A stretch of DNA of 64,000 bases, taken from Eledone cirrhosa (taxonomy: Eukaryota). Location: the NCBI GenBank assembly GCA_964016885.1, contig OZ024742.1:204166001-204230000 (forward strand). The letters are read 5' to 3'. The notes beneath the pieces are model-generated. The model ran no database searches. It saw nothing but the letters and a program-made list of their open reading frames with translations, and was not told the origin of the DNA. The position numbers were made by a program, and so were the translations under genes. Of this stretch, positions 8,663-42,833 are shown one piece after another. How positions within the stretch are numbered: the stretch's first letter is position 1; each line of letters opens with the position of its first letter.

Positions 8663-9406
8663 ATGTACTTACACACCGTCTCTATGACACCAAAGAAAAA
8701 GACATCTAATGATGTTTGTATATACACACTGACGGGAAGGAAGAGAGACAATATAAATAAATAAATGAATAAATGAAAAAAGAAATATATAAATAAATAA
8801 AGAAAGAAAGAAAGAAATGAATGATTGAATGTATAAATGAATAGTTTTATGAATAATTTAATAGTGGTTCATCGTTGGTCGATGTATGTATGTGCACCTG
8901 TGTGCATATGTAAGGGTGAGTGCGTGGGTGTGTGTGTGCGTTTAACTGTATGGGTGGGAGTGTGTTAGATAATGCTTGTTAATCAATACATGTCATCTGT
9001 ACATGTATAACACACCTCTACCTACAGTCACAAACATGTATACACACACATTCATATATATATATATATATTGTGTGCGCGTGTGTGTGTGAGTGTATAT
9101 ATAGTGAAAAATGGAACGGGAACAAAACAGAGAGGCAGTACAAACAAAAGTTTATATGTGGCTGGAGTGCCGGGTTTTGGCGAAGAGAAATATATATATA
9201 TAAGTATGTATACGTACATACATATATGTATACAGACGTACAGTAGTATGTATATATATATACATACATGCACACATATATATATGTACGTATGGATTCA
9301 CCGAATATTTATTATAATGCTCGGTGTGTTTGTAAACAAACATCCCGTATTAAGCCGTAGTGTCTAGCAACCATCGTTGCTCGTTTGTTCAACACTGACA
9401 AAGGAA

Positions 9407-9447
9407 TGCTGTACTAGTTTCAAGCTTGTTAGCTATCGTCAGCAACG
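9407..9447 (-). ncRNA. Type I hammerhead ribozyme (family L)
   Basis: CGTTG CTGACGA tAGCT-aaca-AGCTt GAAAC TA GTA CAGCA. Confidence 0.88.
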
Positions 9448-9821
9448 TATACCTTCCTGCCAGATTGTTGAACGTATATACTTACCTTATGCATATTAAC
9501 GGCTGAGTAGCCCAATTTGCATATCGAGTGGGTTAATCGGCCGGGTGCACCGAAAACGATAACGGGAAAAATGAAACGAAATTTCATTTCCCACGCTTAG
9601 TACGGCTGTTACTTAAATATAAGTATGTATACGTACATACATATATGTATACAGACGTACAGTAGTATGTATATATATATACATACACACATATATATAT
9701 GTACGTATGGATTCACCAAACATTTATTATAATGCTCGGTGTGTTTGTAAACAAACATCCCGTATTAAGCCGTAGTATCTAGCAATCACCGTTGCTCGTT
9801 TGTTCAACACTGACAAAGGAA

Positions 9822-9862
9822 CGCTGTACTAGTTTCAAGCTTGTTAGCTATCGTCAGCAACA
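9822..9862 (-). ncRNA. Type I hammerhead ribozyme (family L)
   Basis: TGTTG CTGACGA ... GAAAC TA GTA CAGCG. Confidence 0.88.
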
Positions 9863-10046
9863 TATACCTTCCTGCCAGATAGTTGAACGTCCGAAAGTAT
9901 ATACTTTCCTTATGCATATTAACGGCTGAGTAGCCCAATTTGCATTTGGAGTGGGTTAATCGGCCGGGTGCACCGAAAACGATTAACGGAAAAAATGAAA
10001 CGAAATTTTATTTCCCACTCTTTCAACTATCTGGCAGGAAGGTATA

Positions 10047-10087
10047 CGTTGCTGACGATAGCTAACAAGCTTGAAACTAGTACAGCG
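10047..10087 (+). ncRNA. Type I hammerhead ribozyme (family L)
   Basis: CGTTG CTGACGA tAGCT-aaca-AGCTt GAAAC TA GTA CAGCG; stem III is the palindrome ACTAGT. Confidence 0.9.
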
Positions 10088-10287
10088 TTCCTTTGTCAGT
10101 GTTGAACAAACGAGCAACGGTGGTTGCTAGACACTACGGCTTAATACGGGATGTTTGTTTACAAACACACCGAGCATTATAATAAATGTTTGGTGAATCC
10201 ATACGTATTTATATATATATATATATATATGTGTGCATGTATGTATATATATATACATACTACTGTACGTCCGTATACATATATGTA

Positions 10288-39880: not shown

Positions 39881-39970
39881 AAATAGACGCGCGTTTCGTT
39901 ATTGATCAGCTCAAGGTTCGATCTGTATCGATCTCTCCCGACTCTGGAATCAAGAGCTCGTCGGACCTCT
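39881..39970 (-). ncRNA. Hammerhead motif (family H)
   Basis: CCGACGA GCTCTTGAT...ATCAATAAC GAAAC GCGC GTC; homologous to 14730. Confidence 0.65.
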
Positions 39971-40368
39971 GATTTTATTATTATTATTATATATATATAT
40001 ATATATATATATATATATATATATTTGGATGTCAACGTATATCTATATATACGTTGACATCCAAACACAGAATCGCAGCAATGAAAATACTGTGAAAAAA
40101 AAAGCAGGGAAAATAACCTTAAAATAAGTGACGAACAAACACTACACAGAATCGAACTCAGTATCCCTTTAATTCAGCCAGGTGCACGAACAACTACGCA
40201 AATGACAGTTAACAAGATAGTTTGTACAAATTAGAAACTAGAAATAATAACTTTAGTGGTTTGAGTTTTCCTCTATTTATACTGTCTCTGTTATTGAAAT
40301 TTAGATCCTATGTGTGTACAGGTGAAAGTCTGTGGTCGGTAAGTAAATTCTTTTTATGTTATATATAA

Positions 40369-40440
40369 TTGATTCTGATGATTTCTCTACAAAGGTATTG
40401 AAAATAATATTCTTTGGAGAATGAAACATCTGTAAATCAA
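40369..40440 (+). ncRNA. Type I hammerhead ribozyme
   Basis: TTGATT CTGATGA tTTCTC..CAAAG...CTTTG GAGAAt GAAAC ATCT GTA AATCAA. Confidence 0.9.
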
Positions 40441-41665
40441 ATAAATATTGTATTAATTGTTGAACCTTGGTGATCTATTTCTTACGCGTGTAAATATATA
40501 TATATATATCTTCTTAATTTATATATATATATATATATATATATATATATATATATATATATATATATATTATTTATATATTATATATATATATATATAT
40601 TATTTATATATTATATATATATTATATATATATTATATATATTATATATATATATAATATATTATATTTTATATATATATTATATATATATATTATATAC
40701 ATTATATATATATATATATTATATACATTATATATATATATATTATATCATGTTATATATATATATATTATATATATTATATATATATATAATATATTAT
40801 ATTTTATATATATATTATATATATATATTATATACATTATATATATATATATTATATACATTATATATATATATATTATATCATGTTATATATATATATA
40901 TATATAGAGAGAGAGAGAGAGCGAGAGAGAGAGAGAGAGAGAGAGAGAGAGAGAGAGAGAGAGAGAGAGAGAGAGAGAGAGAGAGAGAGAGAGATACTAG
41001 ACCTGAAAAATAATATGGACAAATATACAAGTAAATATGATACAACCAATATTATAAGCATGTTATAACGAACTGAAAACAAATAGTTAATAAAAAAATT
41101 TAAAATCATATATAAATTAACAATATAACTTACCAAAATGAGAAAAATATTTTTATGGTAAAACGACGAAATACAGAGGGAAGATTCGAAAGCGAAACGA
41201 TAAATAAACGTGCAAACAAAATGGCGGATGTTTTTGAGGAACAATTACTCTCGTTGTTTGATTAGCCAATAAGACGATGAAATTAGCCAATAAGACGATA
41301 CATTACAAAACATGTTTGGCAGGGTCACCCCTTGAATTTTTTATTCACAAACTACGCATATATGTCAGACACGCAGACTTAAAACATTCTGTTGTTAGTC
41401 ACTGCGTGTCTAACACACACACACACATATATATATATATATATATATATATATATATATATATATATATATATATATATATCCGTCAACCCTTATCATA
41501 TATATATATAGATATATATATATATATGATAAGGGTTGACGGACCCACCATATTTATCAATGCCAGTACCGGTTGTATCTCAGCGCACTGAATGGGCAAT
41601 GTAAGATACATTGCCAGAGTATACACATAGTTATTTGCCTCAACACAACACACATAAAACGGGTG

Positions 41666-41792
41666 CCTATAAGGTCCCCGGACTCGAGTTTCTGCCGCAC
41701 TAATGCAGCAGTAAGGTGCACTGCACAATCTATCTGCATATATTATGCAACAATGCACAATCGGCTTATGCGGCTTCATCAGAGTGTATAGC
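41666..41792 (-). ncRNA. Hammerhead motif with ~80-nt stem II domain
   Basis: CTGATGA aGCCGCA...TGCGGCa GAAAC TCGA GTC; stem I imperfect. Confidence 0.62.
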
Positions 41793-42299
41793 CTAATCAA
41801 TAACCAATCGATCGACAGAATCCAAACAACAGCCCATGCCGGTCATGACTGTTTGTGACAACCAACACGGTAAAGCAATTAGCAACTTGCAACCGATAGG
41901 ACTCTATCTCTCAACTAGCCACTGATTTACAAATTTTACGTGGGGACGTGAAGCTAAAAAGAATCAAGCTTTTAGTTCCTGTCAGAAGCTCTCAGCCAAC
42001 ATGTCTCACACACAAATTATCAAGGGGTGAAAAGATGGCTATTAGAAATAGCAGTTCACATTGATATAAAATAGAATGGTAGCATTCGGTTCATGTCTCC
42101 AAGTCCCATGGCTAGAGGAAAGCGATGGTGACAATGGTAGTGCCAAGAACCTTTAACGGATTTTAATTGCGATCATCCATTATATATCAATATAGTAGCG
42201 ATTGGTTGTATCATATTTACTTGTATATTTGTCCATATTATTTTTCAGGTCTAGTATATATATATATAGATATATATATATATATATATATATATATAT

Positions 42300-42833
42300 A
42301 TAAGTATGTATACGTACATACATATATGTATACAGACGTACAGTAGTATGTATATATATACATACATGCGCACATATATATATAGATGTACGTATGGATT
42401 TACCGAACATTAATTATAATGCTCGGTTTGTTTGTAAACAAACATCCCGAATTAAGCCGTACAGTATTTAGCAACCATCGTTGCCCTTTTGTTCAACACT
42501 GACAAGGGAACGATGTACTAGTTTCAAGCTTATTAGCTATCGTCAGCACCGTATACCTTCCTGCCAGATGATTGAACGTCTAAAAGTATATACTTTCCAA
42601 CGATGGTTGCTAAACACTGTACGGCTTAATTCGGGTTGTTTGTTTACAAACAAACCGAGCATTATAATAAATGTTCGGTAAATCCATACGTACATATATA
42701 TATGTGTGCATGTATGTATATATATACATATTACTGTACGTCTGTATACATATATGTATGTACGTATACTACTTATATTTCAGTAACAGCCGTACTAAGA
42801 GTGGGAAATCAAATTTCGTTTCATTTCTTCCAT
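42300..42833. mobile_element. Family L fold-back copy
   Basis: 42300-42598 is followed by an inverted partial copy at 42599-42833; HHR at 42511. Confidence 0.85.
42511..42551 (-). ncRNA. Type I hammerhead ribozyme (family L)
   Basis: CGGTG CTGACGA tAGCT-aata-AGCTt GAAAC TA GTA CATCG. Confidence 0.9.

Follow-up and report, generated by a model that had tools for sequence, protein, structure and literature searches.

A likely Penelope-mobilised retrozyme family with a hammerhead motif in the genome of Eledone cirrhosa

How does a non-coding repeat with a hammerhead ribozyme (HHR) motif come to lie in tandem, inverted and truncated copies along a stretch of a cephalopod genome, and which machinery put them there? 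We addressed this question for one such repeat, here called family L, starting from 64,000 nucleotides of Eledone cirrhosa (contig OZ024742.1 of assembly GCA_964016885.1, positions 204,166,001 to 204,230,000, forward strand); this whole stretch is called the window, and coordinates below refer to it. Our analysis of sequence and insertion anatomy suggests that family L is likely a new family within a known class, the retrozymes that lack long terminal repeats (LTRs; hence non-LTR retrozymes), and that it is mobilised by Penelope-like elements (PLEs).

Family L and the sites at which its insertions end

The first result concerns the nature and scale of the repeat. We hold with high confidence that family L is a tandem repeat, non-coding and present in many copies, that carries a hammerhead motif and falls among the non-LTR retrozymes. 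In the 3.0-Gb genome (1796 contigs), to which all genome-wide counts refer, a 31-nt pattern for the hammerhead core has 24,749 exact matches against 0 for its reversed control, which rules out a chance origin of the L motif; a 23-nt motif directly 3' of the predicted cut has 29,172 (reversed control 0). A retroelement protein of the same genome has its best named relative in Octopus vulgaris, at 69% identity, which fits an octopod host. The hammerhead motif was found in 56 complete units. Tandem units are mostly 415–502 nt long, and the complete ones form four subfamilies—A (~422 nt), B (~445 nt), C (~428 nt) and D (~484 nt)—that diverge by 0.08–0.20 outside a microsatellite tract. A minor group (L162, L249, L253 and L254), in which C-A or C-G replaces U-U at the base of stem II, is older-looking than these main subfamilies. 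GC content is 0.36–0.38. The longest ATG frame in natural tandems is 51–137 amino acids (aa), the 137-aa frame belonging to the subfamily with the longest microsatellite tract, and no open reading frame (ORF) was recognised in the unit, neither reverse transcriptase (RT) nor GIY-YIG. In the fetched loci no PLE frame was seen continuing out of L units, and end mapping revealed no LTR pair flanking an internal region, although no scan was aimed at LTRs, a primer-binding site or a polypurine tract.

What ties this repeat to PLEs is where its insertions end. Ends were scored on loci from three similarity searches and on the first 100 pattern hits, with overlaps removed and with overlapping, duplicate, locus-edge and complex-cluster cases left out. 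In the RNA sense, 3' ends fall at site 1, ~214 nt past the cut in subfamily A, or at site 2, 56–58 nt beyond it, the interval between them being the tail. The 63 one-armed insertions comprise 28 ending at site 1, 28 at site 2 and 7 elsewhere, and their 5' ends are dispersed from position 2 to 413. Among 67 two-armed insertions, 45 have one site each, two have site 2 twice, one has site 1 twice and 19 have an end elsewhere, so that a one-site-per-arm rule is obeyed by 45 of the 48 with both ends at sites (p ~7e-11); two of the 45 rows are a duplicated segment, without which the figures become 44 of 47 and p ~1e-10. Site ends adjoin (TA)n in 175 of 200 cases, a proportion for which no genome background was computed, and most ends lie within (TA)n, where a target-site duplication is unreadable. 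By their anatomy, fixed 3' ends, scattered 5' ends, an inverted arm and a tail at one end are the PLE "tail" signature. Traits described for PLEs are partial tandems, a copy that is inverted and truncated at its 5' side, a tail confined to one end and a (TA)n bias (PMC8557442, PMC3846280). In vitro, a purified PLE protein for which a dimer is predicted initiates reverse transcription at two internal positions that bound the tail, extends both strands and can do without HHR cleavage (PMC11167929). PLE machinery therefore very probably mobilises L, as judged from this anatomy.

The window, which is rich in (TA)n, contains the following L copies and motifs.

9203–10022, minus strand: left arm of two-armed insertion 1 (subfamily A), with a partial unit, a full 415-nt unit (9412–9826) and a partial unit ending at site 1 beside (TA)n; defined by motif, TRF and end mapping
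9407–9447, minus strand: type I HHR motif, stem I CGTTG/CAGCA, predicted cleavage after GUA (9412)
9822–9862, minus strand: type I HHR motif, stem I TGTTG/CAGCG, predicted cleavage after 9827
10022–10289, plus strand: right (inverted) arm of insertion 1, first part
10047–10087, plus strand: type I HHR motif, stem I CGTTG/CAGCG, predicted cleavage after 10082
14121–14204, plus strand: right arm of insertion 1 resumed beyond a 3.8-kb insert, with the tail, ending at site 2 beside (TA)n
19505–19660, minus strand: 5'-truncated subfamily D fragment, approximately positions 87–270 of the unit, no HHR, ending at site 1 beside (TA)n
38080–38547, minus strand: one-armed copy of subfamily B, made up of a 450-nt unit and 17 further nt, with its 3' end at site 2 and a TA tract on either side
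38363–38403, minus strand: type I HHR motif, stem I CGATG/CATCG, U at position 7
42300–42597, minus strand: left arm of two-armed insertion 2 (subfamily C), ending at site 1 beside (TA)n
42511–42551, minus strand: type I HHR motif, stem I CGGTG/CATCG
42598–42836, plus strand: right (inverted) arm of insertion 2, approximately positions 33–268, no HHR, ending at site 2 beside (TA)n

An earlier, sequence-only reading of this DNA had described tandem units with HHRs 415 bp apart at 9407 and 9822, and this is borne out by the motifs and by a 415-bp tandem at 9207–10022 (TRF). The inverted unit that it placed at 10047 is indeed an inverted arm with an HHR, but a partial and interrupted one that resumes at a piece missed before (14121–14204); the insert that splits it consists of a Gypsy LTR element plus ~280 bp and is later than the arm. 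A copy described as fold-back at 42300–42833 exists as a two-armed copy, extends to 42836 and has a right arm without HHR, and the fragment expected at about 19510–19655 was recovered as a member of the fourth subfamily. In the copy at 38 kb the terminal redundancy is real (17 nt; 38078–38094 = 38528–38544), but the supposed circular permutation is not random, since the 3' end lies at the fixed site 2. The general notion of permuted copies has to be recast in the same way: the copies stop at one of two fixed internal sites on their 3' side and are truncated on their 5' side, as PLE insertions are. Both two-armed insertions of the window obey the one-site-per-arm rule.

The hammerhead, its sister families and the template

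The second result concerns the hammerhead itself. The five motifs of the window read stem I, CUGA(C/U)GA, U-AGCU-AA(C/U)A-AGCU-U, GAAA-CUAG-UA and stem I. Scanning the window against Rfam at the gathering threshold returned 0 families, so the HHR call rests on the motif and on covariation. Stem I has the forms given in the earlier reading at 10047, 38 kb and 42 kb, while its outer pairs have decayed in the tandem pair at 9407 and 9822. That the core changes only at position 7, as had been stated, is correct for the catalytic-core positions of the five copies but not for loop 2, which varies too (C/T). We compared the four subfamilies with 5 aberrant units of the 56 excluded, here and in the array comparison below. 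The constrained core, for which position 7 and a single loop base of the 31 nt are set aside, varies at 0 of 29 positions, whereas 59 of 277 vary in the rest of the unit (Fisher p=0.002), a result that supports the earlier proposal of a selected ribozyme. The accompanying proposal of a covarying stem I needs more care. Its middle pair is U-G, G-U or A-U according to subfamily, with the three main stem forms found at 71, 50 and 44 of 200 sites, but U-U also occurs at 6 of the 200 and G-G at 3; the pair states within L are subfamily states that amount to about two events and, taken alone, are weak evidence of covariation.

On the sequences compared, convincing hammerhead covariation comes only from sister families. 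Pattern searches with the same loop gave 13,585 further cores, which together with the 24,749 L matches (two non-overlapping patterns) bring the related hammerhead cores in the E. cirrhosa genome to at least 38,000. They include two families with the same two-site end anatomy as L. Family L2 (466–471 nt; L173/L174, L176–L179, L195–L208 and L212–L214) is a distant relative of L, alignable to it over its whole length, and has a G-C pair at the stem II base, the cleavage triplets GUU, GUC or GUA, a circular fold like that of L, a tail of ~68 nt and, at one locus, an array of ~31 units. Family M (L209, L210, L211, L218/L158 and L151) has 310–311-nt units, a 35-nt tail and the stem III palindrome ACGCGT. 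Once sister families join the L alignment, double-sided change is seen in 9 of 11 hammerhead pairs, and 93% of alignment cells pair, versus 21–50% in slid controls; this alignment was hand-picked (18 natural copies, 16 distinct) and its rows are related, so that shuffle counts are not probabilities. The stem III hexamer is palindromic in 16 of 16 distinct rows (ACTAGT or ACGCGT), as expected of hammerheads that cleave as dimers (PMC4209133). Predicted circular monomers of L and L2 resemble each other in their branched fold, with z between -5.8 and -10.7 (30 shuffles per sequence); L circles are 64–72% paired with the HHR stems formed, although z may be inflated by the TA-rich tract. In the alignment of L plus L2, 17 of 67 consensus pairs show double-sided change. 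Core conservation and compensatory changes thus support, from sequence comparison, selection on the hammerhead as an RNA.

What served as the template can be approached through the cleavage junction. In 95 of the first 100 post-cleavage motifs the core lies upstream; another 3 retain part of it, and 2 begin at the cut. Read-through at this frequency indicates that the template spans the junction, whether as a ligated circle or as an uncleaved multimer, in line with the earlier suggestion of copying from a circular or tandem template; a linear cleaved monomer is rejected. Rare alleles are common to both arms in 7 of 40 insertions versus 11 of 585 control pairs (p=5e-5), pointing to one template or source for the two arms. 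In family M, five arrays (12, 9, 6, 6 and 5 units, four including both arms) show 0 differences among their units, while the arrays differ from each other by 1–5 changes; uniformity inside and difference between loci are expected from repeated copying of one monomer and favour a circular monomer template. Judging from its sequences, family M appears very young and is the best candidate for a currently active retrozyme family. Some L arrays are uniform as well, with a mean of 0–1.8 differences among units. Circles have already been proposed as templates of more-than-unit PLE copies (PMC4209133), and a circular monomer is the template towards which we lean for L.

Driver, mechanism and rival explanations

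The window also holds PLE remnants. Their clade labels, Neptune and Hydra, come from cysteine motifs matched by eye to passages of PMC8557442, with no tree.

59061–60670: two-armed remnant of a Neptune-like PLE that has an HHR motif of its own and ends at site 2 on the left and at site 1 on the right
17839–18600: further Neptune-like PLE remnant, of a family also found at loci L243–L248
26499–28340 and 14425: Hydra-like PLE remnants, with HHR motifs at 26499 (minus), 28107 (minus), 28303 (plus) and 14425 (plus)

The Neptune-like family has 38,396 first-look candidates in the genome, with open frames of up to ~1000 aa or more, and its element combines an HHR and TA flanks with two ends that lie ~60 nt from each other, one used by each of the opposed arms. 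In one copy the ORF, 898 aa long, had no Pfam or PDB sequence match, and its Atlas neighbours carry RT and GIY-YIG families. We put forward this abundant family only tentatively as the driver of L. L and one full Neptune-like element have no homology beyond chance-level short words, which counts against the link, and the 3' regions of other Neptune-like and of Hydra-like remnants were compared with L by eye only. By eye, GAAATGAAATATCGT lies just 5' of site 2 in subfamily A (L012, 257–279) and GAAACGAAATATCGT spans site 2 of the Neptune-like element (pseudo-LTR, or pLTR, of L244), a likeness that is a weak lead to the driver and may be chance. Searches for an autonomous partner by HHR pattern brought up only sister non-coding families, with no ORF-linked copy among the loci examined, and a 5.4-kb gap in L217 proved to be an insertion of a long interspersed nuclear element (LINE).

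The chain of events that we propose—a retrozyme, PLE copying into (TA)n and a self-cleaved, circularised monomer as template—is, taken whole, a somewhat better than even proposition. L arrays would be transcribed as multimers, in which two hammerheads are predicted to pair via the palindromic ACUAGU of stem III and to cut after GUA; ligation would then close the monomer into a circle with extensive pairing. A PLE protein, probably in dimeric form, would nick both target strands and prime one at each site on the same RNA, and each cDNA would run past the ribozyme junction for a variable distance, leaving truncated, more-than-unit or multi-unit arms joined head to head. The footprint visible in the DNA is that of insertions ending at two fixed internal sites 56–58 nt apart beside (TA)n, and in some arrays later duplication at the DNA level has added units. 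A more specific version is more speculative, and the odds are somewhat against it: both target strands would be primed by a PLE dimer at the two fixed sites of a single circular RNA, synthesis would roll round this RNA in both arms, and L would be a hitch-hiker recognised by its fold and not by pLTR sequence.

Several observations weigh against this chain. Most loci were picked because they resemble copies in the window or lie within the initial 22 Mb of a single contig, so that they do not represent a random sample of the genome. The clearest signal of monomer iteration comes from family M and not from L, several L arrays are as varied inside as between (mean differences of 6.0 and 8.1 vs 6.35 in subfamily A; 10 and 12 vs 13.3 in B), and higher-order patterns occur in L146, L159, L160 and L206–L208. 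The L hammerhead is predicted to be weak: U-U stands at the stem II base in place of the usual G-C, the one-pair stem III costs ~5 kcal/mol in the monomer, and in isolation the 61-nt motif fails to adopt the HHR fold (z +0.27). In published work, uncleaved RNA is the main PLE template in vitro (PMC11167929), and cleavage was seen in 1 of 9 Xenopus dimers (10.64898/2026.07.22.740005). The main rival explanation keeps the element and the PLE machinery but has an uncleaved linear multimer, a transcript reading through an array, as the template, the hammerhead being slow or acting at a different step and long arrays arising through long transcripts and later unequal crossing-over. The predicted weakness of the HHR speaks for it, as does the Anolis PLE, whose substrate is mainly uncleaved RNA and whose HHR mutants are without effect on insertion (PMC11167929). 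So do the duplication at the DNA level evident in L146, where units 2 and 4 are identical and unit 3 and the terminal partial unit share variants lacking in unit 1, and the uneven spread of variants across both arms of L121. The higher-order patterns of L146, L159, L160 and the long L2 arrays point to such later duplication, and a heterodimeric circle as the template of the ABAB array L146 was rejected in favour of a recent one. However, a linear multimer would require a uniform master array of its own for each of the five uniform M arrays, every one of which has its own haplotype, and both the HHR and the closed-circle fold persist from family to family, accompanied by compensatory changes. 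We regard this alternative as a serious one, but unlikely.

The origin of the inverted arm could also differ from what we propose, in that a PLE-mobilised copy might acquire it by fold-back or self-priming, from nascent cDNA or antisense RNA, and not by a second target-primed start. Some arm junctions do overlap in short palindromes (e.g., 16 nt in L121), the rare alleles common to both arms fit this too, and self-priming on an antisense template has been proposed (PMC3846280). A fold-back arm must, however, fall inside the first arm, and L097, L129, L150 and L155 each have arms of which neither encloses the other; this speaks against simple fold-back. The near-strict presence of one site per arm follows directly from two primers, and we consider the fold-back origin improbable. 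More improbable still is that an abundant LINE (RTE-like or other) and not a PLE mobilises L as a passenger of the kind formed by short interspersed nuclear elements. Long ORFs of this sort are at hand (window 49777–52233, RVT_1; a 1040-aa frame in L217), and 5' truncation and inversion occur in LINE insertions too. Yet the ends of L are two internal sites of a unit that continues beyond them and not a terminal tail, and an optional tail at one of two inverted ends is a PLE signature (PMC8557442, PMC3846280, PMC11167929) that is reproduced by a PLE in the window. The idea that L is an ordinary minisatellite that spread as DNA, with no intermediate made of RNA, and whose hammerhead-like sequence is a relic could draw on the lack of an Rfam match and on some long arrays with higher-order patterns (32 units scored over L215, L160 and L216), but it is hardly credible: the dispersed copies have TA flanks, 3' ends at fixed sites and 5' ends at scattered ones, the conserved core and the compensatory changes indicate that selection acts on RNA, and the end structure largely refutes it.

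The other features of the window are as follows.

~10572–14120: Gypsy-type LTR element with LTR-like repeats at both ends and minus-strand remnants of RT, RNase H and integrase, inside the L right arm
47688–54074: broken LINE, with an RT frame at 49777–52233 (minus) and upstream frames
23325 (plus), 39534 (plus), 38774 (minus), 45211 (minus) and 37989 (minus): further AT-rich motifs resembling HHRs, in which stem II is long and stem III is palindromic or nearly so
5851–6990: 42–44-bp minisatellite array with an HHR-like motif at 6182 (minus)

Between the L arm and the Gypsy-type element lie ~280 bp with a hairpin (10290–10571), and the HHR-like motifs at 38774 and 39534 form an inverted pair. 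A promoter of small nuclear RNA (snRNA) type was also considered for L: ATGCAAAT is present in all seven L and L2 representatives, but the candidate was rejected as unsupported. The exact octamer is absent from three U2 upstream regions of the genome, which gave only AT-rich local matches to L and L2 units, and ATGCAAAT also sits within a conserved hairpin of the L/L2 fold. Newt satellite 2 has an octamer promoter, a parallel for which our literature search gave no paper. A tandem array of U2 snRNA genes with a period of ~2.2 kb lies on the same contig as the window, at 307.35–307.45 Mb (L221–L232).

Place among known elements

Comparison with known systems highlights both similarities and differences. 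Like the metazoan non-LTR retrozymes of coral, mussel and axolotl, L consists of non-coding tandem units with one type I HHR each, a GC content below 50% and a highly self-paired predicted circle (Cervera and de la Pena 2020, PMC7229834), and the sequence-level traits of the class that we scored were all found in it (a type I HHR per unit, a short tandem, non-coding sequence of low GC and a paired circle). Its HHR joins the one-pair palindromic stem III of axolotl HHR_Amex1 to the stem II-base U-U of HHR_Amex2. The units, at 415–484 nt, are at or above the top of the reported range of 150–450, and two fixed end sites, a tail and paired inverted arms are not among the traits described in the passages of that paper. 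Circles have been shown experimentally for metazoan retrozymes (PMC7229834), whereas the circle of L is predicted from sequence. With the endonuclease-bearing (EN+) PLEs Neptune, Hydra and Poseidon, L shares an HHR upstream of two fixed ends, an optional tail at one inverted end, 5' truncation, partial tandems and (TA)n targets (PMC8557442, PMC3846280, PMC11167929). Unlike these elements, it has no RT or GIY-YIG ORF and can have several whole units in both arms; its tail of 56–58 nt compares with the 30–40 nt usually cited for PLEs and with ~60 nt in the local Neptune-like family.

Dependence of retrozymes on PLEs has been considered before. PLEs have been named a strong candidate for mobilising animal retrozymes (PMC7229834), and a recent preprint (Li, Clavereau, Pollet 2026, 10.64898/2026.07.22.740005), in which the retrozyme mechanism is still to be elucidated, treats vertebrate retrozymes as non-autonomous PLE derivatives, the same conclusion of PLE dependence as ours. 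L fits the definition of "active" in that preprint, which is two consecutive HHR-bearing units. The Xenopus case made there rests on co-occurrence and pLTR homology and favours local array amplification, whereas the link between L and PLEs rests on insertion anatomy, pLTR homology not having been found with the one PLE family compared in full. The literature searched, which took in few subscription papers and no Repbase, contained no description of L, of cephalopod retrozymes or of tail anatomy in retrozymes, and the passages of PMC7761336 consulted have no mention of cephalopods.

The literature consulted leaves two questions open, one being the identity of the enzyme that mobilises animal retrozymes and the other whether its template is the circle. 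Family L offers a footprint that can be counted—one site per arm in 45 of 48 insertions, read-through of the cleavage junction and uniform arrays in a sister family—and both questions are testable with the published in vitro PLE assay. If the more specific version, with a PLE dimer rolling round one circular RNA, is true, the PLE tail, head-to-head arms and retrozyme arrays would share one mechanism, and E. cirrhosa would provide a genome in which the very young family M and full-length PLE frames coexist.

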